DNA from: Candidatus Enterousia sp.
Lineage (GTDB): Bacteria > Pseudomonadota > Alphaproteobacteria > Rs-D84
Direction: 5' to 3'
DNA length: 64,000 nucleotides
Assembly: GCA_045613345.1 (NCBI GenBank)
Contig: JAZLAT010000005.1
Coordinates: 203,263 to 267,262 of the forward strand
A model generated the notes under the pieces. The model saw only the letters and a list, made by a program, of their open reading frames with translations. It was not told where the DNA came from and did no database searches. The stretch's first letter is position 1. Every line of letters starts with the position of its first letter. This document shows, piece by piece, positions 12,781 to 58,999 of this stretch. The position numbers were made by a program, and so were the translations under genes.

Positions 12781-12781
12781 T

Positions 12782-13983: not shown

Positions 13984-14103
13984 TGTGCACGTTAAGGCGA
14001 AGTCATTATATAACACATTTATCAAAAATCAAGAAAATAAATGGGTTGTGCCCCATAAAAATACTTGAAAAGCTTAATATTCTTGTGTAAGGTGTCTAAC
14101 ACC

Positions 14104-27392: not shown

Positions 27393-27393
27393 A

Positions 27394-28134: not shown

Positions 28135-29348
28135 CATTAAACGACATATTAAAAGAATCTTGGTTATCCATAAGTGGCAACAAAATCCGTTCGTTTTTGA
28201 CGGTCTTGGGAATTATTATCGGTGTTTTGGCGGTGGTTTTGATGGTCGCCGTTGGCGAAACAGTGCAAACAGAAATTACCGACCAATTTTCATCACTTGG
28301 GACAAATACTATCGTGATTCGTGCAGGTGCGGCACAAATAGGTGGTGTGCGCAGTGGGAATCGTCAAACATTGACGACTGATGATGCCGAAGTCATCGCT
28401 AAATTACCCGATGTCGCCGCCATAACCCCAGTGCAAATATCGGGTGCACAAATTGTTTACGGCAATAAAAATTGGTCTACATCAATGATTGGTGTTTATC
28501 CCGATTATACCACTGTTCAAAGTGTGGATATCGAATATGGTGCATTTTTTGACCAAAGCGCGGTTCGAAACGCTTCCACTTACGCCGTAATCGGTCCCAA
28601 AACGGCAAGAGAGTTGGGGATGGATGCAAACCCTGTCGGTGAAGTAATTCGCATCCAGAACGTCCCTTTTGTGATTGTGGGGGTGTCCAAAGAACGTGGC
28701 GATACCGCCATGGGTTCCCAAGACGATATGGTTATGATTCCGGTAACCACAATGAAAAAAAGATTGCAAGGCAGCAAGTTTCCAAATGCCGTCAGTATGA
28801 TTGCGTTAAAACTTTATACTGATGCTGATAATTCCGTGGTAATCGACCAGATTTCCGCCCTGCTCCGCGATAGACACCGTTTGCGCGATGGTGACGAAGA
28901 CGATTTCCAAGTTATGGATATGCGCCAGATTATGGAAACTATGACAACCGTAACCGGATATTTAAAACTGTTATTGATTGCAATTGCGGCGGTATCTTTG
29001 TTGGTGGGTGCAATTGGTATCATGAACATGATGTTGGTGTCTGTGGCGGAACGCACGCGTGAAATAGGTATACGTAAAGCAATCGGCGCACGCGAACGTC
29101 ATATTATTACACAGTTTTTGGCCGAATCTATTATGATTTCTTTTATTGGGTCAATGATTGGGTTGATTTTGGGTGTTGGATTATCCCAAGGAATCGGACG
29201 GTTTATATTGGGTTATAATGTTCCGTTCAGCGCGTGGCCAGTTGTGCTTTCTATTTCTGTGGCGGTAATCGTGGGGTTGGCATCGGGGGTTATGCCCGCA
29301 ATCAAGGCGGCAAAATTGAACCCAATAGACAGCCTTAGATATGAATAG
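28131..29348 (+). CDS. ABC transporter permease, FtsX/MacB family, with a large periplasmic domain
   Basis: 405 aa. N-terminal TM segment, periplasmic domain, then three C-terminal TM segments with a MacB-like motif region. Confidence 0.8.
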   Translation: MTLNDILKESWLSISGNKIRSFLTVLGIIIGVLAVVLMVAVGETVQTEITDQFSSLGTNTIVIRAGAAQIGGVRSGNRQTLTTDDAEVIAKLPDVAAITPVQISGAQIVYGNKNWSTSMIGVYPDYTTVQSVDIEYGAFFDQSAVRNASTYAVIGPKTARELGMDANPVGEVIRIQNVPFVIVGVSKERGDTAMGSQDDMVMIPVTTMKKRLQGSKFPNAVSMIALKLYTDADNSVVIDQISALLRDRHRLRDGDEDDFQVMDMRQIMETMTTVTGYLKLLLIAIAAVSLLVGAIGIMNMMLVSVAERTREIGIRKAIGARERHIITQFLAESIMISFIGSMIGLILGVGLSQGIGRFILGYNVPFSAWPVVLSISVAVIVGLASGVMPAIKAAKLNPIDSLRYE

Positions 29349-33996: not shown

Positions 33997-35118
33997 ATGA
34001 ACCTTAACAAAATAATTTTAACATCACTGTGTGCCATCATCACCACGGCGACCGCCGCATTCGCCGCCGGCGAAAATGTGGTGGCATCAAAAAAATACAC
34101 CGACGACACGTTTCAGACGAAAATATCAACCGGAAATGTTTTGTTTTGGGATGATGACGAAGATGGTGTTTATGACGCGGAAGATGATGTGCAGGTTCCG
34201 GGCCTGGTTGCATATGACCCAACCACTGGTGCCCTGAACGGCAGAAAAATTGGTATTTTGGATTATGAAACGATTGCGAGTGATGGTGAGGGTTCTTTGA
34301 ATTTGTATTCTTATGATGGTGGATATGGCGCTGAAATGGATAATTTTGTTCCAACTGTTCATGCCGTTGCGAATGATTTGCAACGCATATGGAATAGTAT
34401 AGAAGTATTACCTTGGACCTACACCCAAACCGCGGCCGTGAATAATTACAGCACCGCATTTAACAACACAACAAATAATTGGTCAGATGTTGATTCAGGT
34501 TACATGGTTAACGGACTTAGTTTGGCAAACGGCCTGGCATTGAAACAAAACAAGATCCCGGCGCATGCGGCAAATGCGGTTGATTCAGTTTTAACCGATT
34601 CAACCACCGATGGTAATGTGCAAAAGCGTGCAATATTTGATGGCAGTGCCACATATGCCGCCGGCACTCACGCAAACCAAATCCCAACCATGGGTGCGGT
34701 TATGTCGGCAATTACAAATGGTACACCAAAGATAACTTGGTCGGCAACACAAACCGCCGCGGTGAATAATTACAGCACTACATTTAACGGCACAACAAAT
34801 AATTGGGTCGCAGCCGACAGTGGTAAATTGGTTGATGGTAATGTTTTGGCTAATGCGGTCGCACTAAAACAAAATAAAGTTCCGGCGGGGATAGCGGGTA
34901 ATGTTGTTACATATACCGGTACCGCGGGCATGGTTGGGTCGGTTGCAACATACGACGGTTCAACAACTTATGCTGCGGCAACTGACGCAAATAAAATTGC
35001 AACCGCGGCATTTGTGGAAACAAAACAAAAAAAGAAAGTATGTGCGGGTTGGCCGGACGATGTTGCGGTTGCCGATCGCACAGATGCGAATTGCTGGCTT
35101 TGGACTTTCCCAGATTAG
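33997..35118 (+). CDS. Secreted repeat protein, paralog A of an uncharacterised family
   Basis: Signal peptide MNLNKIILTSLCAIITTATAAFA. Internal repeat TQTAAVNNYST.FN.TTNNW...DSG..V.G..LAN..ALKQNK.PA. The conserved C-terminus is ETKQKKKVCAGWPDDVAVADRTDANCWLWTFPD. Paralog B is at 48994. Confidence 0.5.
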   Translation: MNLNKIILTSLCAIITTATAAFAAGENVVASKKYTDDTFQTKISTGNVLFWDDDEDGVYDAEDDVQVPGLVAYDPTTGALNGRKIGILDYETIASDGEGSLNLYSYDGGYGAEMDNFVPTVHAVANDLQRIWNSIEVLPWTYTQTAAVNNYSTAFNNTTNNWSDVDSGYMVNGLSLANGLALKQNKIPAHAANAVDSVLTDSTTDGNVQKRAIFDGSATYAAGTHANQIPTMGAVMSAITNGTPKITWSATQTAAVNNYSTTFNGTTNNWVAADSGKLVDGNVLANAVALKQNKVPAGIAGNVVTYTGTAGMVGSVATYDGSTTYAAATDANKIATAAFVETKQKKKVCAGWPDDVAVADRTDANCWLWTFPD

Positions 35119-39927: not shown

Positions 39928-40797
39928 ATGGACGGTTGGATTATTCTTGATAAACCCAGTGGCGTTTTTTCTAAAACGGCGGCAATGCGTGCAGCCAGGA
40001 TTTTTGACACCAAAAAGAATGGGCATATCGGCACATTGGATCCTATGGCAACGGGCGTTTTACCAATTGCGATTGGGAACGCGACAAAAATGGTTCCTTT
40101 TGTCGAAGAATTTTGCGACCAAAAAAAAGAATATTTGTTTTCTGTGCGGTTTGGGTTTGAAACAGATACTTTGGATAAAACCGGAACCGAAACCAAAAGG
40201 AACGATATTATACCAACCGAAATTGATGTGCGCGCAGTTTTGCCAAAATTTATCGGTAAAATTATGCAAACTCCGCCGTTGTTCAGTGCGGTGCACATTG
40301 CGGGGCGTCGTGCGTATGAATTGGCGCGTTCGGGCGAAAGCATTGAAATTCCACCCCGTCGGGTAGAAATATACGAATTGGAATTGGTTGGTGTTGCGGA
40401 TGGAATATGGAATTTCCGTATGGTCTGTGCGCCGGGAACATATGTGCGAAGTGTCGCACGCGATATTGCGTATGAATTGGACACTTTGGCGACGGTTGAA
40501 TCTATACACCGCACGCGCACCAGTGGCTTTGAAATAAAAGATGCGGTAAAACTTGATTTTTTGGAAAATCTGTTCAATAATGGGGCTGATGTCGGGCAAT
40601 ACCTGGCACCGGTGGATTTTGGACTGGGGGACATTCCGGTCCTAAGTCTGGACGGCGGATTTGTCAAATTGTATAAAAATGGCGGGTTCGTTCGTGTCAA
40701 CGGCGCAGATGGCATACGGCGCGTGTATTCAAACGGTGTATTCATCGGAATTGGTACGGTTGCGGATGGCGTTTTGCGTCCAACAAGAACACTTTAA
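39928..40797 (+). CDS. truB: tRNA pseudouridine(55) synthase TruB
   Basis: [52 protein letters not shown]. Confidence 0.9.
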
Positions 40798-40814: not shown

Positions 40815-41087
40815 ATGTCCATAACAAAAGAAAAAAAGACTGAAATCATCAATGCGTTCAAAATGGGCGAACACGATAACGGTGGTTCTGTGGAATCCCA
40901 GGTTGCGGTTTTGACCGAACGTATTCGTAACTTGACCGAACACATGAAGAAAAATCATAAAGATTTGCATTCACGTCGCGGTCTGTTGATGATGGTCAAT
41001 CGCCGTAAAAAGTTACTTGCGTATATCAAGAAACGTAATGAAGGCGAATACGAAGAACTGATTAAAAAATTGGGTCTGCGTAAATAA
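40815..41087 (+). CDS. rpsO: 30S ribosomal protein S15
   Basis: 90 aa: [50 protein letters not shown]. Confidence 0.9.
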
Positions 41088-41110
41088 TTTGTGTAAAATT
41101 TTATACATTT

Positions 41111-41141
41111 ATGTCGACGAAATTTCGTCGACATTTTTTTG
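41111..41141 (+). terminator. Rho-independent terminator (ATGTCGACGAAATTTCGTCGACAT with a T-run) after rpsO
   Basis: Read directly. Confidence 0.6.
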
Positions 41142-41288
41142 TATGCGAACAAAAAAGTTTCAATAATATCTTCAAAGATAAAAATGCAGGGAAATAATAA
41201 GTTTTTAATAATGGTTTTGTGTTACTTTTTCTCTTTTATTTTTTTATGATCTGTGATATAATAAATTGATACCAAAAGGGGTCAGAGA

Positions 41289-44200
41289 ATGAATATATTT
41301 ACGAAAACTGTTGGAATTTTGTCTGTTTTTTGCGCGGTTGGGCCATGTATGGCGGCACTTCGTGCGGGTGGTACAAATACCCAAAACGCGACCGGCCGTG
41401 TTTCTGTTGCAACCACAACGGGCACATCGGCGGCGCGTCGTTTGCCGACATTGTTAAAGGGGACAACCACTACAACTGATACATCGTCTGATTCTTCTTT
41501 GTTGGGACGTGACGATTGTATTGAACAGTATGACGAATGTATCAAAGACGCAAATGTTTGCGGGGCAAATTTCGAAGAATGTACAACGGCGGAATTGTTC
41601 TATGCCAAAAAACCCCAATGCAATAATGTGTTGTTACAGTGCGGAACCGCGGGTATCAACGCCTTGTTCGGGACGTCAAATATCACAGATTTATCGGCGG
41701 ATAATATTGGTGTTTACCCCACAAGCGGAAGCTTGGTCGGGCAATATATCGAAGCCGGTCATTTGGCCAACTTGTATGATACGGGAACATGTGTTCGGCG
41801 TGTGACGTCATGTTTGCAAAAAGACAATGTATGCGGTTCTGAATTTGAACTTTGCACAAGTAACAATGAATTCAAAAAGCAACGCGTATTCTGTGAATCG
41901 AACATCGCGCGGTGTCAAGAAGATGGTATCCGTGAATTGTTCGGTTCGACCGACGCGTCATCTACCCCTGTTGAGGGCAGTCGCCTGCGTATATTGATTG
42001 ACGAAGGTGCAGATTTGGCGGCGGCAAACGCGGTTGACACATGTCATCGTATTGCTGACCAGTGCATATTGAATGCATGCAAGGCGAATCCGTACAAGTG
42101 CCTTGATGGCAGTAATGTATTAACCATAAACATTGTTGACGCAATAAACAGTGGGGCGTCTGTATCGGAAGAGCAAGCCAAAGGTGCGGCGGCTGTAACA
42201 TCCAAAGGAGAAGTAAATCGTTATATATACAGTCAATGCAGTGATACAATCGGGGGCAGCAAGTATTGCTATATGAATGCAAATGGTGGCAAAATTCCGA
42301 CGGCGTCACAATTGAAAGATGAATATATTCGTGACGAAGTTTTTGCAGATACTTATGAATGGGTAAAAAAGGCGGGTTTAGATGCAAAACTTAAAGAATT
42401 AAAAGAAAATTTTGATACCGAAGCCAAGGATAAATGTGCGGAAACACTTATGTCGTGCGCAATGAGTTCTTGTGGCGGTGGATTTGAAGCTGCATGCTAT
42501 GGAAAAGTGTACGGCAAAGACCCAAGTGGAACAGAATCAATAAATAAAACTGGTACGTATACAGAAATTCAACGCGGATGCGAAGCAATCGTGAATACTG
42601 ATGCAAATTGTCAGTATGCGGCGGCGGTGACAGATACGTATCAATATAATAACAAAGAAGTATTTACGACATTGTTCCCAAAATATACACAAGGTTACGA
42701 AGATCCAATTGGGGTTATTGCCAAGTTAAATGGTTCTTTGGCACAAACATATAATTCCGCGGCGATCGAGAGAATAGCGGACAGTTGCCGTGATAATGTG
42801 GAAGAGTGCATCATAAGTGAATGCGGTTCTGATTATAGTATGTGTTATCGTAATCGTTCGGATATTATGAGTGACACTTACGCGACAAGTGGAACCGATG
42901 TAACAAGCCTTAATACATTTGATGCAAGTATGAACAAGGTTGGTGGTGTTTTGGACTTTACAATTGTTCGTGGTTTGTGCATGGGTGATGTTGAAAAGTC
43001 GTCTGCATGTAATGAACACCTTAGAATCCAAGCGGCAAGAAATGATACCGGCAATGGTTGGGCCGGTGTGAAAAAAACCACGGTGGGCTCAACGTGGGCA
43101 GATACCGCCAAAGGGTATAGTTTGAAAGAAGTCGAATACAATGATGCTGATGACAAACTTTGTGTTGCGACCCCTGACGATTCTAAATGTTCGGTTGATG
43201 AAGCATCGGATCCGCACGAATGTGGCACGGTTGCAGATGGTTGCAAATATGATCAACCTATAACTTACAAAGATTATTTGTTGACGCTTAGTCGTGATAC
43301 GTTATTCCGCGAGGTTGTAGATAGAGTAGAAAAGAATGCCCAGTCGATGTATAACGCGCAACTGACCAAGGAACAAAATATGTGCCGTGCCGCGAACAAT
43401 GGTGGTGTTATGGGACGTAACGATATGGCCAGCACATATATGTGGGTGAAATTGAATTCACGCAAAGTTCCAAAGAATTACAGCGTCACTGGATTAAAGG
43501 CAAATGAATTCAAACCAAGTAACGATTTGTATGGTTCGTTCTGTCGTGCACGTGTCACGGTTCAGTCCGATGACCCAGATATACAAAACGCATTACAGAA
43601 AGGCGCGAATTGGTCCACGGCATACTTTGCGGTTGGTGATATGTTCACCTGCGGTTCCTGGATTCCACAAGATAAATTGGAAGAAATTGCGATAAATGTC
43701 GCATGCAAGAAAGCAAAAGCAGAAGGTAAAATAAAAGCCGATGCATCTTGTACTGGCGCCGATAGTGTGGGTATGACAACCGGTCAGAAATGGGCGACGG
43801 CGGCATCAGCAATCGGCTCGGCTGCGTTGGGTGGTGTCGGTATGGATTTGCTGCAAACCAAGACCGGATTGGGTGGGTTGGTGACAACTAAGAATTATAC
43901 GTCCAGCGAAGAAAATGCGATAAGTGCATCTATTGGTGCGGCAGAGGCCATTTACAATACAAATTGCACAGGAAATTCACCGAAATGTTCTGATGGCAGG
44001 AAGTGTTTTAGTGTTAGGACCGGCTTTAGTGGATCTAATATAACAAACACTTATACTTTCAATAAGGATAATGATAATTATCAGTATACGTGTGCAGATA
44101 TTAACAGTTATATAGATAAACAGTACAGTTTGTTAGGAATAAATAGAACGACAGGTGAGAGGTCTGGTAATTGGTGGCAGAAAAATGGCAAGCGTGCAAC

Positions 44201-44399
44201 TGTTGATGCGGTGGGCGCTATTGGACTTGGTATAACTGGTGGATTGGCGGTTGGTAAAAACATCAAGGCGGCAAATCGTCAAGAATTTACCAAAGATCAG
44301 CAAGAATTTATGAACCAAGTTGGCGACCATATCTATTGCTTTGTTGGTGCGGACGAAGCCGGAAAATACGGTGACCTGAACGAAATAAGTTTGGATTAA
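41289..44399 (+). CDS. Large cysteine-rich secreted protein of unknown function
   Basis: 1036 aa. Signal peptide MNIFTKTVGILSVFCAVGPCMA. Repeated C-x2-4-C modules (DDCIEQYDECIKDANVCGANFEECT; VTSCLQKDNVCGSEFELCT; ADQCILNACKANPYKCLD; CAETLMSCAMSSCGGGFEAACYG; DSCRDNVEECIISECGSDYSMCY). The C-terminal region is Gly-rich (AIGLGITGGLAVGKN). No TM segment lies beyond the signal peptide, and no family was recognised. Confidence 0.5.
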   Translation: MNIFTKTVGILSVFCAVGPCMAALRAGGTNTQNATGRVSVATTTGTSAARRLPTLLKGTTTTTDTSSDSSLLGRDDCIEQYDECIKDANVCGANFEECTTAELFYAKKPQCNNVLLQCGTAGINALFGTSNITDLSADNIGVYPTSGSLVGQYIEAGHLANLYDTGTCVRRVTSCLQKDNVCGSEFELCTSNNEFKKQRVFCESNIARCQEDGIRELFGSTDASSTPVEGSRLRILIDEGADLAAANAVDTCHRIADQCILNACKANPYKCLDGSNVLTINIVDAINSGASVSEEQAKGAAAVTSKGEVNRYIYSQCSDTIGGSKYCYMNANGGKIPTASQLKDEYIRDEVFADTYEWVKKAGLDAKLKELKENFDTEAKDKCAETLMSCAMSSCGGGFEAACYGKVYGKDPSGTESINKTGTYTEIQRGCEAIVNTDANCQYAAAVTDTYQYNNKEVFTTLFPKYTQGYEDPIGVIAKLNGSLAQTYNSAAIERIADSCRDNVEECIISECGSDYSMCYRNRSDIMSDTYATSGTDVTSLNTFDASMNKVGGVLDFTIVRGLCMGDVEKSSACNEHLRIQAARNDTGNGWAGVKKTTVGSTWADTAKGYSLKEVEYNDADDKLCVATPDDSKCSVDEASDPHECGTVADGCKYDQPITYKDYLLTLSRDTLFREVVDRVEKNAQSMYNAQLTKEQNMCRAANNGGVMGRNDMASTYMWVKLNSRKVPKNYSVTGLKANEFKPSNDLYGSFCRARVTVQSDDPDIQNALQKGANWSTAYFAVGDMFTCGSWIPQDKLEEIAINVACKKAKAEGKIKADASCTGADSVGMTTGQKWATAASAIGSAALGGVGMDLLQTKTGLGGLVTTKNYTSSEENAISASIGAAEAIYNTNCTGNSPKCSDGRKCFSVRTGFSGSNITNTYTFNKDNDNYQYTCADINSYIDKQYSLLGINRTTGERSGNWWQKNGKRATVDAVGAIGLGITGGLAVGKNIKAANRQEFTKDQQEFMNQVGDHIYCFVGADEAGKYGDLNEISLD

Positions 44400-44650
44400 T
44401 CCCCTTGGTGGCTTGGTATTGCTGGCACACATCAGTGTGCCAGTATTATTTTTCAGAAATTTAATATAAAACAAAATATAAATAGCGCTGTGTACGAATA
44501 TCTGTTGTTTTTTTGTCCGTAATTTTCACTGTTGTTTGGATTTTTCTTAGGAAAACAAACATAATAAAAATCCTTGTCCTAGGAAGTTATTTCAACTATA
44601 ATAAGAATACATACTTTAGTTCTAGTATAATACAAAAGGAGAAAGAAAAA

Positions 44651-48993: not shown

Positions 48994-49758
48994 ATGAACC
49001 TTAACAAACTTATTTTAACATCACTGTGCGCCATCATCACGGCGACCGCCGCATTCGCCGCCGGCGAAAACGTTGTCGCGTCAAAAAAATACACCGACGA
49101 CACGTTTCAGACGAAAATTCCGGCGGAGGTTTCAACGTTGTCGGACATAACCGGTAATGCCGGTGCATTGATTGGTGCAACCGATGCAAACGGTGTTGTA
49201 TCACAACGTTTAATAATCCCCGGATATAAAAGTGCCAGCGGAAACGGTGAATTGGGGGCCGCGATGTATGAACAAAGTGGTGACGGTACTGAGCTGTGGG
49301 GTGCTTGGGACGACTTTACTGTCGATTCATTTGCCGGAACGTTGGATGACATTTATCGTCAGTTGAATGATGCTAACGGTATGGGATATGAGCCGCAATA
49401 TTCCGTCCCCAGTATGGAATTGGCTTTGAATTGGGTGGGTGATATTGGTGATAAATTGAGTGATATTAACGGTCAATTGGTGGATATTGACGAATCAAAA
49501 CAACCAATGATTCCGGCGGGCACGGCGGGTAATGTGGTCACTTACACTGGCACCGCGGGTGTGGTTGGGTCAAATACTGTGGCATCCGCCGCAACATATA
49601 ATCAACAAACCGGTGCTTTGACCAACGGTTCGTCTATTGCCAATGTGACTTTGGTCGAAACCAAACAGAAAAAGAAAGTATGCGCCGGTTGGCCGGACTA
49701 TGTTGCCGTTGCCGACCGCACAGATGCAAATTGCTGGCTTTGGAGCCTTCCAGACTAA
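48994..49758 (+). CDS. Secreted protein, paralog B of the family at 33997
   Basis: MNLNKLILTSLCAIITATAAFAAGENVVASKKYTDDTFQTKI is nearly identical to paralog A. The C-terminus is ETKQKKKVCAGWPDYVAVADRTDANCWLWSLPD. Confidence 0.5.
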   Translation: MNLNKLILTSLCAIITATAAFAAGENVVASKKYTDDTFQTKIPAEVSTLSDITGNAGALIGATDANGVVSQRLIIPGYKSASGNGELGAAMYEQSGDGTELWGAWDDFTVDSFAGTLDDIYRQLNDANGMGYEPQYSVPSMELALNWVGDIGDKLSDINGQLVDIDESKQPMIPAGTAGNVVTYTGTAGVVGSNTVASAATYNQQTGALTNGSSIANVTLVETKQKKKVCAGWPDYVAVADRTDANCWLWSLPD

Positions 49759-50211: not shown

Positions 50212-52419
50212 TTATTCCGTCACCGTGGATTCGGTTTTTCCGGTTCCTTCTTCGGACGATTTTTCCTTTTTGGTTTCTTCGCCCGTCTTTTGGTCGATGT
50301 TTGCCATGCTCATACGTGTTTTACCACGTTTATCTGCACCTAAGTACTTTACAAACACGGAATCACCTTCGGATAATCCGGCATCTTCAATCTTGGCCAA
50401 ATGTTTGCCCGTGATATCAGAAATATGAACCATCGCTTCAAATCCGTTCAAAATACGCACGAACAAGCCAAAATCTTTGATACCTGTGATGACACCCGGA
50501 TATATTGCACCGACTTCGGGTTCGGCGACGATTTCTTTGATGCGTTTGATTGCAGCATTCGCAGAATCTTTATTAAACGCCAAAATCTTGACCGTTCCGT
50601 CATCTTCCAAATCAATGGTTGTGTCTGTTTCACGTGTCAAAGCCTGGATAACGACACCACCTTTACCAATCACATCGCGAATCTTGTCCGGATTAATTTT
50701 GATTGTATAAACCTGGGGTGCGTATTCAGAAACATGATCGCGCGGTTTGTCAATCGCAGATGTAATCTTGCCCAAGATATGCATACGCCCGTCTTTGGCC
50801 TGGGCCAGGGCGCGTTCCATAATTTCAAAAGTAATAGATGTGATTTTAATGTCCATCTGTAACGCGGTGATACCACGGTCGGTCCCGGTTACTTTGAAAT
50901 CCATATCGCCCAAATGATCTTCATCGCCCAAGATATCGGTCAAAATTGCGTAATCATCGCCTTCTTTGATAAGACCCATCGCAATACCCGCAACCGGACG
51001 CTTCATCGGGACACCACCGTCCATCAATGCCAAAGTTGCACCGCAAGTTGTCGCCATTGACGAAGAACCGTTCGATTCCAAAATGTCCGAACAAATGCGA
51101 ATCACATAGTCAAATTCTTTACGTGATGGCAACATCGGATGAACCGCACGCCACGCCAAATTACCATGACCAAGTTCACGACGGCCCGGCGCACGCAAGC
51201 CTTTGGCTTCGCCAACCGAAAAGCCCGGGAAATTATAGTTTAACATGAATTCGCGTTCTTCGGAACCGTCCAAAGTTTCCAACGGTAACGCATCTGTGCC
51301 GCCACCCAATGTCAAAGACACCAATGCTTGGGTTTCGCCACGTGTGAACAATGCAGAACCATGTGCGCGCGGTAACAATCCCAATTCTATCTCAATCGGA
51401 CGCACCGTTTTCGTGTCACGACCATCAATACGCGGACGTCCCGCCAAGATGTTGGAACGCATGATACGCGCAGTGATATTTTCAATGATTTCGTCTGCCG
51501 CAGATTCCAATGTTGATGTTGCAACAACTGTATCAGGGAACATTTCCGGAATCAGTGTTTTTGCCGCCGCATGAATTTCGCCTAACTTTTCCAAGCGCAC
51601 CAATTTTTCCTTGATACCCAAAGCCGATTCAATATCGCCCGCGAATTGTTCGAAACGTTTTTCCATTTCGATATATTCTGGACTTTTTTCTGGGGTTGCC
51701 CAACGTTCTTTGCCCGCAAGTTTAACCAAATCGTTGATTGCATTGATGACAACTTGTTGTGCTTCAAACCCGAATTTGACCGCGCCCAGTGTTGTTGCTT
51801 CGTCCAGTTCGCCGATTTCAGATTCAACCATCAAAACGCCGTCTTTGGTTGCGGCAACGACCAAGTCCATTTCAGAAGTTTCCACCGCTTTCTTGGACGG
51901 ATTCAAAATGTATTGTCCATCGCGATATCCCACACGCGCCGCACCAATCGGTCCATTAAATGGAACACCCGATAATGCCAACGCCGCCGAAGACGCAATC
52001 ATTGCCAAGATATCAGGCTGGTTCTTGCGGTCATACGAAAAAACTTGTGCGATAACTTGGACTTTGTTTTTGAAAGTTTCAGGAAACAACGGTCTTATTG
52101 GACGATCAATAAGGCGCGCAATCAATGTTTCGCCTAAACTTGCACGACCTTCGCGACGGTCACGTGACCCCGGAATACGCCCCGCAGACGCAAATTTTTC
52201 TTGGTAATCAACGGTCAACGGAAAGAAATCTTGACCTTCGACCGCGTTCTTTTCGGCGCACACGGTTGCCAACACCATTGTTTCGCCCATTGTCGCTAAT
52301 ACGGCACCGTTCGCCTGTTTTGCCATACGTCCTGTTTCAAGACGCAATTTTGTCCGACCATAATCAACTTCGACCACAACCGGATTATTCAGGTGCTTTA
52401 CACCATTTTCATTTGACAT
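50212..52419 (-). CDS. pnp: Polyribonucleotide nucleotidyltransferase (PNPase)
   Basis: 735 aa: two RNase PH domains, a KH domain and an S1 domain (GAIYPGVITGIKDFGLFVRILNGFEAMVHISDI). Confidence 0.9.
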   Translation of the reverse strand: MSNENGVKHLNNPVVVEVDYGRTKLRLETGRMAKQANGAVLATMGETMVLATVCAEKNAVEGQDFFPLTVDYQEKFASAGRIPGSRDRREGRASLGETLIARLIDRPIRPLFPETFKNKVQVIAQVFSYDRKNQPDILAMIASSAALALSGVPFNGPIGAARVGYRDGQYILNPSKKAVETSEMDLVVAATKDGVLMVESEIGELDEATTLGAVKFGFEAQQVVINAINDLVKLAGKERWATPEKSPEYIEMEKRFEQFAGDIESALGIKEKLVRLEKLGEIHAAAKTLIPEMFPDTVVATSTLESAADEIIENITARIMRSNILAGRPRIDGRDTKTVRPIEIELGLLPRAHGSALFTRGETQALVSLTLGGGTDALPLETLDGSEEREFMLNYNFPGFSVGEAKGLRAPGRRELGHGNLAWRAVHPMLPSRKEFDYVIRICSDILESNGSSSMATTCGATLALMDGGVPMKRPVAGIAMGLIKEGDDYAILTDILGDEDHLGDMDFKVTGTDRGITALQMDIKITSITFEIMERALAQAKDGRMHILGKITSAIDKPRDHVSEYAPQVYTIKINPDKIRDVIGKGGVVIQALTRETDTTIDLEDDGTVKILAFNKDSANAAIKRIKEIVAEPEVGAIYPGVITGIKDFGLFVRILNGFEAMVHISDITGKHLAKIEDAGLSEGDSVFVKYLGADKRGKTRMSMANIDQKTGEETKKEKSSEEGTGKTESTVTE

Positions 52420-52666
52420 AATTTTTCTCCATTTTATTGGTTAAATTTTCATTTCACCCCAGAGAAAAATCATTCGTTATTGCATTCTGGGAAATCACAA
52501 AAAATGCAAAAATGAATAATTCTTTCCCCAAGGGCAACGGTATTATACGAAATATTTATCCATTTGCAAATATTTTATACGAAACAAACTTTTTTATTGT
52601 GTGTTCGTATTTTGCCAATGTTGCAATAGATGTTATAATTTTTGCAAAAAAATCAAAGCATGGTTT

Positions 52667-52993
52667 TTAATTCAGATTCGTTAAAAACATTGGAAAGCTT
52701 GGTTCTTCTTCGTCCGAATTGTCCGAAGTATCAGTATTTTCCACCGTGGTTTCTGGTGCATGCGATTTATCATGCGGATCGCGGCTTGAATCAATCTTGC
52801 TTTGTTCTTCATTTACGATACGACCGTAATGTTCGGCGGCTTGCAAAAGGCGTTCGCGTGCTATTTCATCGGTGGCTTGGCGTGCCTGGTCTAAATATTG
52901 TTTGCGTTTCATGCGCCATTTATGACACCGCTGGATCATCATGCCAACGGCAGATTGGTTTTTTCCAGATGACTGATTTTTCTTACTTGGCAT
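52667..52993 (-). CDS. DUF4167-domain protein (conserved in alphaproteobacteria)
   Basis: RMKRKQYLDQARQATDEIARERLLQAAEHYGRI matches the DUF4167 N-terminal pattern. The tail is acidic. Confidence 0.5.
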   Translation of the reverse strand: MPSKKNQSSGKNQSAVGMMIQRCHKWRMKRKQYLDQARQATDEIARERLLQAAEHYGRIVNEEQSKIDSSRDPHDKSHAPETTVENTDTSDNSDEEEPSFPMFLTNLN

Positions 52994-53138
52994 ATCTCTA
53001 TCTTTTATTTTGGGGATAATCCGTGGGCAAATAATTTTGCTTTGCCCGTCTTAACTACAGGTTAAATGATAAAACATCTTAAAACCAATTGCAATATTTT
53101 TTTTATATTGCTATGCTTTCATTGTATATGGGGGGGAT

Positions 53139-54506
53139 GTGAAAGCAGAACGTGGTAATTTTTTATTGCAAGCACTTTTGTCTTTGACATTGGTATTCGC
53201 GTTTATACCTTTTTTTGCGCGGCGTCTGGCAACACGTGATATGGGGTCCCAGATGTATACCACAACCCGTCAAGTCGAAACGGTAAAGGCGGCGGCAAAA
53301 TCGTTTATTATTGAAAATGCTTATACATTTCCATATGGTCGTATTCGTATCACGGGTGACAAGTTCATAGACAGCCTTAGTCCATACGGATTGCCGATTG
53401 GCTTTTTGACACGGACCGCGATGGGACAAGATATAAGTTTAATTATCAATAATGATGATGGGGTTGTTTCTGCATTTGTGCGATTGAGCGGCGGAAATCT
53501 TGGGGTGATCCAGCGCGCAGAGTTGGCGCGACGCATTGGATTCTTTGCGATGTATAATCCTGATGACCCTGATGGTCATATTGATGTCGGTATCCAATTG
53601 GCAGATATGTATTCTGATGTTGTGCGAAGAAATGAAAAGGATTATGAATATTCGGGATTCTTGTCTGATTTGGATATGGGTGGCTTTCGATTTGATAATG
53701 CGGCAACAATATTGGCAGAAAATGCATCTTTTGATACCGCGGAAGTCACCACGCTTGGTATAAATGGAACAGAATCAGGCCGCAAAGAACGAAGCGGAAT
53801 TTTAAGTATTACTACAAATAAGACCGTGTTTCAAACAAGTGCAGGTGAATCCGCATTGTCTATAAGTCGCGGCGAATTAAAAGCCGATTCACTGGTCGTA
53901 AGAACGGTGTCTAAATATGGCAGCACCGGCAACATAACCGTTGGTGATGCCGCGGTTGACAGTTTTGATATGTCCACGGGGCACACCGGATTCGAAGGCC
54001 CAGAAAAATGGAATGTTGGCGGCAATATTGTCACAAGCCGAATCACTTTTAACGTTGAAAGATTAGATATAAGTTCTGTTATCAATACTACGCGCGGTCA
54101 AGATGTATATATCGATTCAGACACATTATCGTACAGCAGTGTCAGTGGTATAGATGCCGGCACAATTTATGCGTCCAATATTACATTGCGTGACCAAACT
54201 TCGGGTGGCTTAGTCCGTGGTGGCGATGGCGCGGCAGTATTGGATATAAGGCCTGCTGGGGCTTCGTTATTACCGGACGCATTGGTTGATAATATAAATA
54301 ATGGCGGTTTTACGATACTTGCACAACCCGAAAAAGACGACAGTTCAACCGTAACTTGCGAATCTGTGATTGGCGCGATTGGCGGTAAATATAATTCAAA
54401 ATCTTTGTCACAATATATAATATGCCAATATGTTTTTTGGCAAAGATTGGAACACAGAATAAATATCAAACAATGCCTTGTGGAGGGTGGCAGTGATTGC
54501 AGGTAA
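53139..54506 (+). CDS. Large TadE/pseudopilin-like protein 1, with a prepilin-type N-terminus
   Basis: The N-terminus AERG|NFLLQALLSLTLVFAFIPFF is a class-III-signal-like segment with Gln at +5. Confidence 0.45.
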   Translation: MKAERGNFLLQALLSLTLVFAFIPFFARRLATRDMGSQMYTTTRQVETVKAAAKSFIIENAYTFPYGRIRITGDKFIDSLSPYGLPIGFLTRTAMGQDISLIINNDDGVVSAFVRLSGGNLGVIQRAELARRIGFFAMYNPDDPDGHIDVGIQLADMYSDVVRRNEKDYEYSGFLSDLDMGGFRFDNAATILAENASFDTAEVTTLGINGTESGRKERSGILSITTNKTVFQTSAGESALSISRGELKADSLVVRTVSKYGSTGNITVGDAAVDSFDMSTGHTGFEGPEKWNVGGNIVTSRITFNVERLDISSVINTTRGQDVYIDSDTLSYSSVSGIDAGTIYASNITLRDQTSGGLVRGGDGAAVLDIRPAGASLLPDALVDNINNGGFTILAQPEKDDSSTVTCESVIGAIGGKYNSKSLSQYIICQYVFWQRLEHRINIKQCLVEGGSDCR

Positions 54507-54507
54507 A

Positions 54508-55698
54508 ATGAAATTTTTATCACGCGCACATAAATCCGAAATCATCGCACAACGTGGTGGTGGATTGGTTGAAATATTGCTTGCGATGGTAATTATTTCT
54601 GTTGCTGCGCCATTTACTTATTCAATGATAGCCGAATCCACGCATGCGATACACAACATGGCAATTGCGAATGATATTATCAGTTTAAAATCAGGTATAT
54701 TGAATTTTGTGCGATTAAATCAAGACCTTTGGCCGACCGAGGTTCAGATAAAAATGTCTGATGATGAATTAGCAGAGTTTTCAGATTCCATATCATCAGG
54801 TTTTATTGATAAATACACGGTTCATGGCGGGACAATTATCGATGTATATTTGGCTTTTGATTTGGATGCGACACCAAAGCGTATCGCTCAAATTGCACAA
54901 AACATTGGTGATGATGCCGCGGTTGTTGCCGACGATGGAATCGCATACAGTGATTCTTGGGCGGTAACCGCCCCAGATTTTAAGCCCGGAAATTTGATTT
55001 ATAAAATAAGTCGTGATCTTTCGGATCGTGATACTTCGCGATTCTTGCATCGTGGTGCCTCTGGGACAGACAATTTGAATACAATGGAACGTGATTTGAA
55101 TATGGGCGGATACGATGTTTATAATGTTGGAAATTTGGAAGGAAAATCTGTTCGTGTTCGCACAATTGATACCACGTTTGTGAATTCAGAAACCATAGAT
55201 GCACAAAATGTTTACTTTTCGTCTGGGGCGAATATGAATGCCGATAAAGTTAAAATCGGAACAGTTCGTGTTTCGGGTGATACAAACGGATTCAGAAATA
55301 TCGAAGCAAAAAAATTAAACGGTTCCGCATACAGCATAAATGGACGTATAATCACAGATCGCGCTACGATAAACAATTCGATAAATATTGGACGCGATTT
55401 AACATTAAAATCTTCGTCTGTGCGCACCGTCAGTGGTTTTGTGGGTTTGGCGGTCGGTTCTGTGTATACGCCATATCTTTCCGCGGGTGAAATAATGTTC
55501 TATGATAATTTTGGTTTAACTGTGTCGGGCGAATTGATGATATCTTCAAATCCACCAATAAAGTTGGGTTCGTGGAGTTTTCCATCAACAACACCGCCGT
55601 CTTTTTCGTCATTGAATCTTACGCGTGCGATGATGCCATCAATGCCAAATCCAAAAGAATTTGATAAAATTATGGGGTCTGATTGGAAAACAAAATGA
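54508..55698 (+). CDS. Large TadE/pseudopilin-like protein 2
   Basis: MKFLSRAHKSEIIAQRG|GGLVEILLAMVIISVAAPF has Glu at +5 after the putative cleavage Gly. The ATG lies 2 nt after the upstream stop (TAAAATG). The tracked ORF begins at 54478. Confidence 0.45.
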   Translation: MKFLSRAHKSEIIAQRGGGLVEILLAMVIISVAAPFTYSMIAESTHAIHNMAIANDIISLKSGILNFVRLNQDLWPTEVQIKMSDDELAEFSDSISSGFIDKYTVHGGTIIDVYLAFDLDATPKRIAQIAQNIGDDAAVVADDGIAYSDSWAVTAPDFKPGNLIYKISRDLSDRDTSRFLHRGASGTDNLNTMERDLNMGGYDVYNVGNLEGKSVRVRTIDTTFVNSETIDAQNVYFSSGANMNADKVKIGTVRVSGDTNGFRNIEAKKLNGSAYSINGRIITDRATINNSINIGRDLTLKSSSVRTVSGFVGLAVGSVYTPYLSAGEIMFYDNFGLTVSGELMISSNPPIKLGSWSFPSTTPPSFSSLNLTRAMMPSMPNPKEFDKIMGSDWKTK

Positions 55699-57008
55699 AA
55701 ACATACAAAAAAATCTTTGCGCATAATTTTGCAGAACGTGGAACGGTGCTGATTGAATTTTTATTGACTATCGCATTGGCGGGGACATTGGTACCATTTA
55801 TATACAGTTATCATACTCGTGCCGTCACACGTGCAGAAAATGTTAAAATTACGCGTCAAATGGAACGTATTCAATCAGTATTGGAAAGATACATTGTGGA
55901 AAACAAAGAACGTATGATGACAACCGTCGGTCGCAGCATAATCAAAATAGGCTTGTCTGATTTAGTTGAATATGGTTTAGATTCTGATTTTGCAAACAAT
56001 GCCTCCGATAAATACCAAGTCAGAATATTAAAATCTGTGGATGCGGGCAATCAATCTTCTTTGCAAGGCGTGATTGTTTTAAATGATTCTGAGATAACCG
56101 CGTTACGCACGCGACAAATTGTGTCTATGGGTGATGACAAGTTGGGTTTTGTCGATGGCAATCGTGCTTATGGTGGATTCGGTACGTGGCGTGCAAGTAT
56201 CGCAGATTTAGGAATTGATAGTACATCGGGTATTGTTCGTACCACAGGCATAAATCGCGACAGCGCATTGTATTTATGGCGTGTGCCTTCGTCAAATGTT
56301 GCCGATGCAACAATGATGTCTGCATTAAACCTTGGGGGGCGCGACATTAAAAACGCATCTTTTGTAAATACGGGCGGATTAAAAATAGATGAAATTTTTA
56401 ATGCAAAAAAGATTGTCACAAATGATTTAGTCTTTCAAAACAGAACCACTATTGATTCCGATTATAAAACACAAACTGCGATAGTTTCCGGGACTTTATC
56501 GGGCGATTCGAAAAATGTCAATGTGAATGGAACTTTCTTTTTGAATGATTTGGGAAAATTTTCTGCATTCACAGCAGACAATTTATGGGTAAATACTTTA
56601 AATCTAAGTGGTTTATCTGTTAAATCTGGTGGTGCGGCGGTATTACGTACGGGTGGCTTGTTGGACATGACCGAAGGTCGCATAACGGCAATGTTTGTGA
56701 CGGTCGGTTTTACTGGGTCAATAACATCGCGTTTAAATGTCAAAAATAAAATAATCGATTCAATAAATTCTGATTACTATTGGGACGTCCAATCTCGTGT
56801 TGCAAATTTATCAGATATATCATCACCAACTTTATCAGATATGGCGACACGGGCATTACGCCGTGAATCTGTGTCTGGAAGCGTTGCAACACAATTATTC
56901 AATGCGGTTGCCACAAACAAGAATGCAACTGTGGCGGATTTTATGAATACGATAAATGAAATACAAACCAAGGTTAAGGCAAAATATCATATGTTGAATT
57001 TGCAATAA
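55695..57008 (+). CDS. Large TadE/pseudopilin-like protein 3
   Basis: MKTYKKIFAHNFAERG|TVLIEFLLTIALAGTLVPF is a textbook prepilin signal with E+5. The start overlaps the upstream stop (ATGA). Confidence 0.45.
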   Translation: MKTYKKIFAHNFAERGTVLIEFLLTIALAGTLVPFIYSYHTRAVTRAENVKITRQMERIQSVLERYIVENKERMMTTVGRSIIKIGLSDLVEYGLDSDFANNASDKYQVRILKSVDAGNQSSLQGVIVLNDSEITALRTRQIVSMGDDKLGFVDGNRAYGGFGTWRASIADLGIDSTSGIVRTTGINRDSALYLWRVPSSNVADATMMSALNLGGRDIKNASFVNTGGLKIDEIFNAKKIVTNDLVFQNRTTIDSDYKTQTAIVSGTLSGDSKNVNVNGTFFLNDLGKFSAFTADNLWVNTLNLSGLSVKSGGAAVLRTGGLLDMTEGRITAMFVTVGFTGSITSRLNVKNKIIDSINSDYYWDVQSRVANLSDISSPTLSDMATRALRRESVSGSVATQLFNAVATNKNATVADFMNTINEIQTKVKAKYHMLNLQ

Positions 57009-57045
57009 TTTGTGCTATAAGAAAAATATATCAAAGGAAACAGAT

Positions 57046-57564
57046 ATGAAAATTAAATGCGATGTTTGCAAAACAGAATATTCTATGGACAATGCGCCAA
57101 ACGGTCGTGTGCGTTGCACGGTATGCGGAAATGTATGGGCCGTGCCGCGTGCGAATCGTCGAAGCGGACTTATGGTTTTTATCGCATCAATTTGCGCATT
57201 GTTGGCGGCAACAATATTTGCGGTTGTGGTTATTGTTACTTCGCGTCACGATGACCCAAATAAAAGACCGCTTATTGCAACAATAACAAGTATTGAAAAT
57301 ATAAATCAAGACGGTAAAGATGCTTTGGTGGTCAACGGCACAATAACAAATCGTTCTGACGATATATACGGGTTGCCAGATTTGGTGATAATTTTGCATG
57401 ACGCAAACGGTGCACCAATCGCCCATCAAAAATTTATGCCAACGGCAACATTGTTAGATGCAGGACAATCTGTGGGATTCAGTCATACATTAACAACTAA
57501 TGTATCGGGTGTAAAAAAAGTTTCGGTTGAATTATTGGAATCTGAAAAACAAGGGACAAAATGA
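57046..57564 (+). CDS. Zinc-ribbon (MJ0042-type) + TM + DUF3426 protein
   Basis: MKIKCDVCKTEYSMDNAPNGRVRCTVCGNVW (C-x2-C...C-x2-C), then a TM helix (LMVFIASICALLAATIFAVVVIV), then a beta-rich C-terminal domain. RBS AAAGGAAACAGAT ATG. Confidence 0.6.
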   Translation: MKIKCDVCKTEYSMDNAPNGRVRCTVCGNVWAVPRANRRSGLMVFIASICALLAATIFAVVVIVTSRHDDPNKRPLIATITSIENINQDGKDALVVNGTITNRSDDIYGLPDLVIILHDANGAPIAHQKFMPTATLLDAGQSVGFSHTLTTNVSGVKKVSVELLESEKQGTK

Positions 57565-58040
57565 TGAAAAAACTTCTTGTGTTATTCGGTTTGGTTGCTC
57601 CGTTATATGCGATTGCCACAGATACACCACAAACACCGCCGGCACCGGTGCCCGTTTCACGCGTCAGTATCTTTTCAACAACGACTGATTGGGCGGCATT
57701 GACCGGATTGCCATTGCGTCAGTTTATTGGTGATTTTTCATGGACGAATTCTGATGTTACGCGTGGTCTTGTTTTATACTATCTTGACGCATTTCCATGC
57801 TATGGCGAAGCCGACAGTGTTCGCATATGGCTTGGTCCAAATAAACAATCAACCGGAACATTACGGTTGGTGTGCGTGCATGCACCGACAGAGATAAGTT
57901 TTACTTGGCGTAACGCCACCCGTGATGCAGATCAAGCACAAAGTACGGGTATATTGAAATGTCCTGTGACCGGTGATTATGAATTAAAAATCGATATATC
58001 AAAATGCAAACGCGGTCCCGATTGGAAGGAATATAAATAA
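57561..58040 (+). CDS. Secreted protein of unknown function
   Basis: Signal peptide MMKKLLVLFGLVAPLYAIA. Four Cys. The start overlaps the upstream stop (ATGATG). Confidence 0.4.
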   Translation: MMKKLLVLFGLVAPLYAIATDTPQTPPAPVPVSRVSIFSTTTDWAALTGLPLRQFIGDFSWTNSDVTRGLVLYYLDAFPCYGEADSVRIWLGPNKQSTGTLRLVCVHAPTEISFTWRNATRDADQAQSTGILKCPVTGDYELKIDISKCKRGPDWKEYK

Positions 58041-58042
58041 CA

Positions 58043-58999
58043 ATGTCTGATACGCGTGAACTTATTGTTAAACCCGAAAGTGCCGGTGTGCGCATTGATA
58101 AATTCTTGGTTGGTGAATTACCAGAATTTTCACGCAGCGAAATTCAAAAATTCATTGTCACACGCAATAATGCTTCGGTAAAATTTTCTGATAAAGTAAA
58201 ATGTGGCGATAATATATCTGTGGAAATACCCGCACAAGAAACAGATGTTGCAACCGATAATATTTCAAACGAACTGGATTTAGAAGTGTTATACCAAGAC
58301 GATGATATAATCGTTATAAATAAACCGCGTGGCGTTGTTATGTATCCGTCTGCGGGAAACAAGACGGGAACTTTGGTTCAAAATGTTTTATCAATAACAC
58401 ATCTGTCTGGGTTGGGTGGCGCAACGCGCCCCGGGGTTGTGCATCGTTTAGATAAAGACACAAGTGGCATCGTTGTTTTTGCGAAATCTGATGCCGCGTA
58501 TCGCGGATTGGTGCATACTTTTTCTACACACAATTTAACACGGAAATATATCGCCTTTGTTTGGGGTGTGCCAAATTGGACCGGGGCAGATATAACCGGT
58601 AATATCGCGCGTTCGTCCCGCAATCGTCAAAAAATGACCATGGTTAAAACCGGGGGACGCCCCGCACACACGGTTGTTGATGTTATTGACGCATGGACTC
58701 GCGTTGGGGTTTCGGAATTTCGTTGCACTTTGATGACCGGTCGAACACATCAAATTCGTGTGCATTTATCGGCACATGGTTTTCCTGTTTTGTGTGATCC
58801 GGTATATGGTCATGGTGCGTCGCGATACGGTTCGGTCAAAGATCCCGAGTTATTAGAATTTATCAAGACGCATAATGGGCAAATGCTTCATGCGGCAGTA
58901 TTGGAATTTGCTCATCCGGTGACGGGCAAACAAATGAAATTCAAAACGGAATTGCCCGACGATATGCAAGAATTACAATGTATACTAAATGAAGCCTAG
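58043..58999 (+). CDS. rluD: 23S rRNA pseudouridine synthase, RluA family (RluD-like)
   Basis: S4 domain, then HRLDKDTSGIVVFAKSDAAYRGLVHTF...KYIAFVWG. Confidence 0.8.
   Translation: MSDTRELIVKPESAGVRIDKFLVGELPEFSRSEIQKFIVTRNNASVKFSDKVKCGDNISVEIPAQETDVATDNISNELDLEVLYQDDDIIVINKPRGVVMYPSAGNKTGTLVQNVLSITHLSGLGGATRPGVVHRLDKDTSGIVVFAKSDAAYRGLVHTFSTHNLTRKYIAFVWGVPNWTGADITGNIARSSRNRQKMTMVKTGGRPAHTVVDVIDAWTRVGVSEFRCTLMTGRTHQIRVHLSAHGFPVLCDPVYGHGASRYGSVKDPELLEFIKTHNGQMLHAAVLEFAHPVTGKQMKFKTELPDDMQELQCILNEA

Follow-up and report, generated by a model that had tools for sequence, protein, structure and literature searches.

The stretch of DNA that we analyzed, 64,000 nucleotides from Candidatus Enterousia sp. 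(assembly GCA_045613345.1, contig JAZLAT010000005.1, positions 203,263 to 267,262; referred to as the window), carries a gene for a giant cysteine-rich protein of 1036 amino acids (aa) directly behind rpsO, at the place where pnp would be expected (41289..44399 including the stop codon, plus strand). What this protein, called the giant in the following, does for the cell and how its gene came to lie next to rpsO are the questions raised by this locus. An original prediction made from the sequence alone had reported the open reading frame (ORF) as that of a secreted, possibly surface-located protein; the ORF is genuine, with a Shine-Dalgarno sequence (AAAGGGG) located 8 nt before the start codon, and by its composition, its conserved promoter and its many homologues it belongs to this genome. 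We tentatively favor the view that a divergent type IV filament carries the giant at its tip as a large, PilY1/MshQ-like protein that is not itself a pilin. This assignment was made because the giant is a Sec-exported neighbor of three pilin-like proteins, one of them devoid of Glu at position +5, and ends in a conserved C-terminal strand.

In the window, the giant gene is found at a distance of 9 kb from a block of six plus-strand genes (53139-58999). The block is opened by three pilin-like paralogues, A (455 aa, 53139..54506), B (406 aa, 54478..55698) and C (441 aa, or 437 aa from the annotated start, 55683..57008). These are followed by the gene for protein D (184 aa, 57010..57564), which possesses an MJ0042-type zinc ribbon, one transmembrane (TM) segment and an FxLYD/DUF3426 domain, and by that for protein E (159 aa, 57561..58040), a secreted protein with four cysteines that belongs to no known family. 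The last gene, rlu, encodes an RluD-type pseudouridine synthase (58043..58999; Pfam PseudoU_synth_2, 2e-28). A homologue of the giant lies directly 3' of A-B-C-D-E-rlu in 74-78 of 82 related loci (individual loci are designated by L numbers below), and the outer flanks of this arrangement vary. The original prediction had missed this conserved partnership. In most relatives rlu directly precedes the giant, the spacer behind rlu having a median length of 89 bp. Two further layouts were encountered: the giant gene is oriented divergently from A in L089 and L090, and precedes A-B-C by 1.3 kb in the distant locus L084. A small conserved ORF in the window (108 aa; 52667..52993, minus strand) resembles DUF4167 (Pfam, 6.6e-5, 23.5 bits vs. 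a cutoff of 25) and is 78% identical to that of L089; in relatives it is located either between gene A and the giant or divergently from A.

The N-termini of A (MKAERG, then NFLLQALLSLTLVFAFIPF), B (...QRG, then GGLVEILLAMVIISVAAPF) and C (...ERG, then TVLIEFLLTIALAGTLVPF) all consist of a short basic leader that ends in Gly and is followed by about 20 hydrophobic residues, a class III signal-like organization. Gly-1 and Pro+18 are present in 100% of the A, B and C orthologues (Pro+18 in 73/73 for A). The residue at +5 is differentiated: A has Gln in 72 of 73 orthologues, B has Glu in 74 of 75, and C has Glu in all 77. The three proteins are mutual paralogues, with a similarity that spans most of each chain (hhalign, 4e-35 for A-C, 5e-15 for B-C and 1.5e-9 for the third pair). 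The AlphaFold2 (AF2) model of C displays a 60-residue N-terminal helix packed with a beta-sheet, the "lollipop" fold of pilins. The nearest counterparts of this fold are type IVb pilins, among them TcpB and CofB, which are large minor pilins. When the PDB was searched with profiles of the pilin-like proteins, the top three of the four matches were pilins aligned in register, and one homologue has been named PilE by the Joint Genome Institute (JGI). From the analogy with known minor pilins, A is a candidate for an apical subunit of the PilK/GspK type. A separate, canonical pilin family of 152 aa occurs in the same metagenome-assembled genomes (MAGs), where some sources label it "PulG" or "GspH family"; in L088 it is encoded about 2 kb from the block. 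Our search of the window for a small canonical pilin found none. The ORF at 23051-23518, whose counterpart neighbors the block in L039, was considered for this role and rejected since it is not pilin-like.

In known type IV filaments, tip complexes rest on a trimer of minor pilins, and the apical PilK/GspK-type subunits invariably lack Glu+5 (PMC12918778). PilC, PilY1 and MshQ are proteins of about 1000-1200 aa whose genes directly follow those of the minor pilins, and they dock via their last 6-10 residues or so, which are inserted as a beta-strand (PMC12918778). Several features of the giant resemble those of the PilY1/PilC/MshQ proteins of type IVa and MSHA systems (PMC12918778, PMC7541494): a Sec-exported non-pilin of similar size is encoded beside minor-pilin-like genes, one pilin of the set has no Glu+5, a conserved and (in the giant) predicted beta-strand at the extreme C-terminus ends the protein, and an adhesive, exposed role is presumed. 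The candidate docking strand is part of the C-terminal tail of the giant (aa 1001-1036; 44289..44396, plus strand), a region predicted to form a helix and three short beta-strands (AF2 strands 1015-1019, 1022-1026 and 1030-1032; predicted local distance difference test score, pLDDT, 63-80). The tail ends in ...YGD(L/I/V)-I/N-E-I-S-L-D-COOH; among 120 homologues it reads ...EAGTYGD(L/I/V)I(E/T/S)(I/T/L)S(I/V/L)(E/D)-COOH, and in a tier of distant relatives ...(Y/F)GDxIxI(K/R)-COOH. The extreme C-terminus is the most widely conserved element of the giant, and it is always the end of the protein.

Enterousia belongs to the order Rs-D84, whose members possess genomes of 0.75-1.0 Mb, lack respiration and flagella, and for which a dependence on partner cells is predicted (PMC12306168). 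They are widespread in the guts of humans, ruminants and poultry and lack most biosynthetic capacities (PMC12306168). Against this background, we envisage that the giant crosses the inner membrane by Sec and would fold in the periplasm, where some 18 disulfides or more would be formed. Its C-terminal beta-strand would then dock onto a tip complex of A, B and C, with A (Gln+5) in the apical position, and a filament built from the separate, approximately 152-aa canonical pilin would display the giant at the cell surface. The conserved modules of the protein may serve as a stalk, and contact with a partner cell, a host surface or mucus might be made by the two hypervariable segments, aa 591-658 and aa 871-965. 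Such contact could serve the partner-dependent life of these gut bacteria with their reduced genomes. Disulfides, docking, surface display and adhesion are the parts of this scheme that we infer. For an uncultured, partner-dependent lineage, the giant provides a concrete and testable candidate for a contact apparatus, and a universally retained protein of about 1000 aa uses about 0.35% of such a genome. If the proposed docking is true, the rule, recently put forward for type IV filaments, by which a C-terminal strand licenses a tip protein would reach one of entirely different architecture. A more specific proposal, which we regard as unlikely, is that an A-B-C heterotrimer of duplicated large minor pilins with one Glu+5-less member is capped by the giant, a helical and disulfide-stapled protein without a propeller, through its C-terminal strand, and that this constitutes an unrecognized type of filament tip by which Rs-D84 cells attach to their partners in animal guts. 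Such a filament may operate with minimal or highly divergent assembly machinery that has escaped standard annotation.

A number of observations weigh against a role at a filament tip. None of the neighborhoods contains a recognizable assembly ATPase, platform protein, prepilin peptidase or secretin, and a motif scan that covered 1.44 Mb from the window and the related loci found no signature of a GspE/PilB Walker A, of a prepilin peptidase or of a secretin. A genome survey attributes type IV pili to another lineage only, not to Rs-D84 (PMC12306168). Pilin hidden Markov models (HMMs) give A, B and C no more than sub-threshold scores (N_methyl, 13 vs. 21.2 bits; TIGR02532, 13 vs. 16.3 bits), and the fold scores are modest. 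The giant itself lacks a C-terminal beta-propeller (Pfam Neisseria_PilC/PilY1 family), a von Willebrand factor A (vWA) domain and any sequence or fold similarity to PilY1/PilC, and possesses cysteine-rich helical modules instead. Its presumptive partners also differ from the small and distinct PilI, PilJ and PilK types in being large (406-455 aa) mutual paralogues, and D, E and rlu separate the pilin-like genes from the giant, in contrast to the arrangement at PilY1/PilC loci. With respect to gene order, the giant is detached from the block both in the window and in L011, and distant homologues occur in L083, L085 and L086 without a nearby block. Since rlu is a housekeeping gene within the cluster, part of the synteny may reflect mere inertia. 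Terminator-like hairpins are present in 20 of the 67 spacers that precede the giant; given these hairpins and the promoter of the giant itself, co-transcription with the block is not needed.

The giant is a member of an undescribed orphan family without detectable relatives in sequence or fold. We found 794 proteins that match it at E<=1e-3, and the best 120 of these are unnamed full-length proteins of 1000-1160 aa with 41-62% identity. The relatives are encoded by 211 species-level genomes of Candidatus Enterousia or of uncultured Alphaproteobacteria from gut and rumen, among them a complete chromosome of 958,618 bp; to judge from the sequence searches, the detectable relatives are confined to gut Alphaproteobacteria with tiny genomes. 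An exhaustive profile search against 1.84 billion representatives recovered only 260 proteins, all from this one orphan family, of which a distant tier aligns only from about profile position 225 onward. Pfam and NCBIfam searches with the giant identified no family even at E-values up to 10, Pfam searches with nine distant homologues returned nothing beyond sub-threshold matches of the glycine-zipper type, a sequence-profile search of the PDB gave a single chance match (E=0.35), and the best Foldseek hit in the PDB (E=0.38) was a designed armadillo-repeat protein. The description of the giant as a disulfide-rich secreted protein of an unnamed family is supported, with a location at the surface or in the envelope being probable. 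A known repeat-adhesin family, such as haemagglutinins or laminin-like proteins, had been named as the finding that would overturn it, and no such match appeared in the family, PDB or profile searches. With five predicted disulfide-stapled helical modules for which there is no structural relative, the giant is an orphan at the level of the fold. Locus L086 carries two divergently transcribed cysteine-rich paralogues, one of 901 aa (6855-9560, minus strand) and one of 1137 aa (10001-13414, plus strand), which share an N-terminal "RPSV...ARVPTL" motif and a poly-Thr linker; hence, the family can duplicate. No paralogue of the giant was detected in the window by tblastn. Locus L030 (CAVGNU010000002.1), titled "Bacteroides fragilis isolate ... 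cleanbin_000047", contains both the whole pilin-like block and a giant with 42% identity; it is almost certainly an Enterousia-like contig that was put into the wrong bin or given the wrong label.

As had been claimed, the giant is rich in cysteine: its 46 residues (4.4%) are the highest content in the window, where the other ORFs contain 1.2%. The spacing of these residues deviates from the earlier account, which had described C-x2-4-C modules separated by roughly 20-40 aa. Although C-x4-C does occur, C-x2-C and C-x3-C are absent; C-x6-C prevails with 15 of the 45 successive gaps, compared to a maximum of 8 in 20,000 random placements (P<5e-5), and the clusters are 28-59 aa apart. In an alignment of 42 sequences, 36 cysteines are invariant, and the number of cysteines in the mature protein is even in 42 of 42 homologues, with totals of 36, 38, 40, 42, 44, 46 or 48. 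Cysteines are therefore gained and lost pairwise in this family. These counts provide strong indirect evidence that the cysteines form disulfides. The original prediction had also entertained metal binding. That the giant is a periplasmic binder of metal or of a redox cofactor, with the cysteines acting as ligands, would accommodate the 36 invariant residues, and one may ask by what means disulfides would be formed and maintained in a strictly anaerobic host that does not respire. We nevertheless consider this explanation very improbable: no CxxC, CxxCH or known cluster or haem motif is present, the spacings are of the x4, x6, x9 and x12 kind, the even counts across seven different totals are a signature of pairing, the giant contains only five His residues, and it matches no metal-binding family.

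We derived the anatomy of the giant from the 42-sequence alignment and the AF2 model (mean pLDDT 64). A Sec-type signal peptide (aa 1-22; 41289..41354, plus strand like all regions of the giant) is indicated by hydropathy and by an A-x-A cleavage motif with an invariant Ala22; a lipoprotein N-terminus was rejected since there is no lipobox and Phe, Leu or Pro precedes the Cys. It is followed by a low-complexity linker rich in Thr and Ser that is predicted to be disordered (aa 23-69; 41355..41495) and carries the motif AARR(L/M)PT, with invariant R51, P53 and T54. The R...RR(L/M)PT motif and the subsequent poly-Thr/Ser tract are kept even in the distant L086 paralogue, and might act as a processing site, a glycosylation tract or a sorting signal. 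An LPXTG-type reading of RRLPT was discarded because of the N-terminal position of the motif and the diderm nature of the organism. Modules M1 (aa 70-160) and M2 (aa 161-245; together 41496..42023) each follow the pattern C-x6-C-x6-C-x6-C-x12-C-x6-C, and all 12 of their cysteines are invariant. Self-BLAST missed the internal repeats, but hhalign of sub-alignments revealed M1 and M2 as a tandem duplication (probability 99.6%, E=5e-24). The helical modules M3-M5 (aa 246-375, 376-492 and 493-590; 42024..43058) have C-x6-C-x4-C-x6/7-C and then C-x9-C, pLDDT values of about 70-88 and only invariant cysteines. M3-M5 share their cysteine pattern without significant profile similarity (hhalign, E 0.006-0.18). 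A hypervariable, cysteine-containing loop region (aa 591-658; 43059..43262; pLDDT <50) leads to an alpha/beta domain with one long helix and a beta-sheet in the AF2 secondary structure (aa 659-830; 43263..43778), the best-conserved globular part with column identities of 0.6-0.89. The C-terminal region that precedes the tail (aa 831-1000; 43779..44288) contains two glycine-zipper helices (about 835-858 and 970-990) around an insert (871-965).

The giant is 64% identical to its counterpart in a close relative (dN, the non-synonymous divergence, 0.29), and the neighboring proteins are 87-93% identical (dN 0.04-0.075) at comparable synonymous divergence (dS). It evolves four to seven times faster than its neighbors, and the divergence is mosaic. 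Identity to the close relative amounts to 81% in M1, 86% in M2, 49% in M3, 62% in M4, 47% in M5, 28% in aa 591-658, 77% in the alpha/beta domain, 17% in aa 871-965, and 86% in the tail. This fast mosaic evolution suggests an exposed location. Such a location would also suit an alternative that we consider possible, if somewhat doubtful, namely that the giant is an autonomous protein of the envelope or surface, anchored to a membrane by its glycine-zipper helices and its tail and acting as an adhesin or a disulfide-cross-linked scaffold, so that its adjacency to pilin-like genes merely reflects inherited order. The Gly-rich C-terminal segment noticed before (GAIGLGITGGLAVGKN, residues 976-991) overlaps the second of two conserved Gly/Ala-rich helices that flank the hypervariable insert, and two distant homologues have sub-threshold C19orf12-like (glycine-zipper) matches over this region (16-19 bits vs. 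a cutoff of 30). The absence of a TM anchor, asserted earlier, is therefore not secure, as both helices could associate with the membrane. They are only weakly hydrophobic (Kyte-Doolittle 1.2-1.55), however, and contain charged residues, and no glycine-zipper family was matched by the giant of the window even at E up to 10. In line with an autonomous role, the giant has its own promoter and terminator, stands alone in several distant relatives, and is separated from the block both in L011 and in the window; the organism is diderm, with Skp, TolC and a YadA-anchor adhesin encoded in the window. Yet the adjacency to the pilin-like genes has outlived three rearranged layouts with changing flanks, which is hard to credit to inertia alone, and an autonomous role leaves the conserved extreme C-terminus unexplained. 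The earlier statement that the giant has no autotransporter or LPXTG-type signal holds in Pfam and NCBIfam searches: Pfam detects neither a beta-barrel translocator nor a YadA anchor in the giant, and the same search does find a YadA anchor in the ORF at 19319-22006.

Another alternative links the giant to the pilin-like proteins in a different way. It could be a cargo that is released by a pseudopilus of the type II secretion kind, with A, B and C at the tip, to serve as a colonization factor acting at a distance, a toxin or a scavenger. The Sec signal, the probable periplasmic disulfides, the pilin-like neighbors, the "PulG"/"GspH family" names of the small pilin, and the similarity of C to type IVb pilins all fit such a scheme. 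There is precedent in type IVb pili, whose secreted partner proteins bind the tip minor pilin (PMC6048534, PMC9565799, PMC10120004); TcpF and CofJ depend in this manner on the minor pilins TcpB and CofB. Like A, B and C, the proteins TcpB and CofB have about 400-500 aa and combine a pilin domain with extra C-terminal domains, and a partner protein with a gene of its own, exported by Sec, relies on the tip pilin there as it would here (PMC5207764, PMC6048534, PMC9565799, PMC10120004). We still deem release as cargo improbable. No secretin or ATPase motif was present in the 1.44 Mb scanned, the glycine-zipper helices and the strict conservation of the C-terminal strand speak for a protein that is retained and not released, and strand complementation is unneeded for a released cargo of a type II secretion system (T2SS; PMC12918778). 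The partner proteins differ as well. In contrast to TcpF and CofJ, the giant is cysteine-rich and ends in a conserved strand that suggests retention. With 1036 aa it is also, as we presume, far larger than either of them. TcpB and CofB act as homotrimers of one gene product, whereas the present locus encodes three paralogues that are differentiated at the +5 residue.

Other known systems share single features with this locus. TadG/CpaL of the alphaproteobacterial Tad (type IVc) systems is likewise a large pilin-like tip protein (about 600 aa; PMC12918778). Its own strand complements the tip in cis, whereas here a separate giant is the candidate strand donor (PMC12918778). A Pfam search with A, B and C at E up to 10 gave no TadE or Tad_N match. 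We take their N-termini (RG, then xxLxE(F/L)LL...P) to resemble leaders of the TadE/G type. The chlamydial OmcB/OmcA proteins are presumably comparable in that they are exported, carry many conserved paired cysteines and occur in host-dependent bacteria, and we assume a likeness to Helicobacter Hcp/Sel1-like repeat proteins in the helical hairpins that are plausibly stapled by disulfides. The giant differs from both groups in lacking a Pfam Chlam_OMP6/DUF11 or Sel1 match and in its cysteine spacing and fold.

How did the giant gene come to lie behind rpsO? The original prediction regarded it as an insertion that took the place of pnp in the truB-rpsO-pnp cluster. It does occupy the expected place of pnp, but pnp itself (polynucleotide phosphorylase; Pfam RNase_PH twice, PNPase, KH and S1) is present in the window at 50212..52419 on the minus strand. 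The genes truB (39928-40797) and rpsO (ribosomal protein S15; 40815..41087, plus strand; Pfam Ribosomal_S15, 1.1e-31) are followed by the strong rpsO terminator that had been noted, an intrinsic hairpin with a 10-bp stem, a 4-nt loop and T7 (about 41111-41134, plus strand). The closest relative found, L089/L090, encodes neighboring proteins 77-95% identical to those of the window, and comparison with it defines two junctions. The left one (41135..41223), with rpsO as the last gene before it, has no counterpart 5' of the giant in L089; homology resumes 65 bp before the giant ATG, where window positions 41224-41392 match L089 positions 9936-10101 with 86% identity (blastn). At the right one (52420..52666), the upstream region of pnp meets the 3' end of the small ORF, and window positions 52667-53200 match L089 positions 9847-9299, the homology ending exactly at 52667. 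The gene order is rpsO(+) giant(+) ... pnp(-) small ORF(-) A(+) in the window, and fabD-111aa-fabG-mnmG, <-rlu<-E<-D<-C<-B<-A, ->small ORF->giant in L089/L090. Since the junctions are reciprocal and the orientations are those expected, a single inversion of about 11.4 kb, with breakpoints in the rpsO/pnp and small-ORF/giant spacers, fits as the event that placed the giant beside rpsO; an ancestral contiguity of rpsO and pnp, as is typical of this cluster, is assumed here. A simple inversion, rather than an insertion, can hence break up the truB-rpsO-pnp cluster, and the position of the giant next to rpsO is without functional meaning. In a search for long inverted repeats at both junctions, nothing beyond chance-sized matches of 14-27 nt was found.

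The same data bear on whether the giant gene was acquired horizontally, or whether the contig is an assembly chimera at 41100-41290, both of which we consider extremely improbable. The spacer in front of the gene is AT-rich, and its positions 41135-41223 have lost their homology with the close relative, which would suit an insertion or a chimera. Its GC content (24.9%), however, is ordinary among the intergenic regions here (mean 31.2%, standard deviation 6.2, minimum 19.4), and the giant gene is native in GC content (43.7% vs. a mean of 43.6% for long genes), in GC content at third codon positions (GC3; 38.9% vs. a mean of 40.0%) and in codon usage (fourth most typical among 23 long genes). 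Moreover, the family is clade-wide, and the reciprocal junctions, 11.4 kb apart on one contig, are oriented as an inversion predicts (52420-52666 for the right one). The claim of a foreign-looking AT-rich promoter survives only in part: the giant has its own promoter, but its extended -10 element (TGATATAAT, 41254-41262, plus strand) is conserved in relatives, where TGnTAyAmT sits 34-36 nt before the giant ATG in 55 of 73 loci, and it lies within the 65 bp that moved together with the gene. An intrinsic terminator (11-bp stem with a T-rich tail, about 44420-44445, plus strand) follows the giant, and this hairpin is kept in L089 too. Enclosed by the terminators behind rpsO and behind the giant, the latter is a monocistronic gene in the window. 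A second perfect extended -10 element (TGnTATAAT, 52631-52639, plus strand) is present in the right junction; it points to the small ORF, in antisense, and to the pilin-like gene A, which is 500 bp off.

The genes nusA-infB-(rbfA)-truB-rpsO-pnp are distributed over three pieces in the window: infB (63010-63993, minus strand, cut by the end), truB-rpsO, and pnp. A helix-turn-helix (HTH) gene that adjoins the giant here sits by infB in the close relative L087, where nusA-infB is followed by this HTH gene in convergent orientation, indicating that the lineage has rearranged the nusA-pnp region repeatedly. On the other side of the giant, a 16S-23S-5S ribosomal RNA (rRNA) operon on the same strand was found 3' of the giant in 31 of 82 loci; a further 15 contigs break off less than 1.5 kb from the gene. 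These operons, organized as 16S-tRNA-23S-5S, lie 0.6-8 kb past the giant (e.g., L001 13918-18862 and L009 12111-16979), and their presence explains why many MAG contigs end just after the giant. The window contains no rRNA gene.

Several further features of the window and its relatives were recorded. The ORF at 19319-22006 (minus strand) encodes a protein of 895 aa that ends in a YadA-like membrane anchor (Pfam, 4.7e-10) and by its sequence looks like a trimeric autotransporter adhesin and thus like a second large surface protein in a genome of about 1 Mb. Just downstream of it in the numbering, skp/ompH is present on the same strand (22217-22870, minus). A complete TolC-MacA-MacB-type tripartite efflux/export set (OEP, HlyD, ABC_tran and MacB_PCD/FtsX) is encoded at 24877-29348 (plus strand), followed on the opposite strand by a gene for a tetratricopeptide repeat (TPR) protein; type I secretion of the giant via the nearby TolC-MacAB was rejected, as the giant has a Sec signal and many cysteines. 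Rfam identified four tRNA genes, of which three are clustered between 13816 and 14176, distributed over both strands, and the fourth is located at 24721-24791. In L087, a VirD4/TraG-type coupling protein of a type IV secretion system (T4SS; T4SS-DNA_transf, TrwB_AAD_bind; 11740-14007, minus strand) is encoded near a cluster of small pilin, OmpA and Skp genes, and possibly represents another cell-contact system of the lineage. ORFs without Pfam or NCBIfam family in the window are located at 48994-49758 (plus strand; 254 aa with a clear signal peptide), 33997-35118 (plus), 10174-10950 (plus) and 14217-15155 (minus); they fit the many "hypothetical membrane-bound proteins" recorded for Rs-D84 (PMC12306168).

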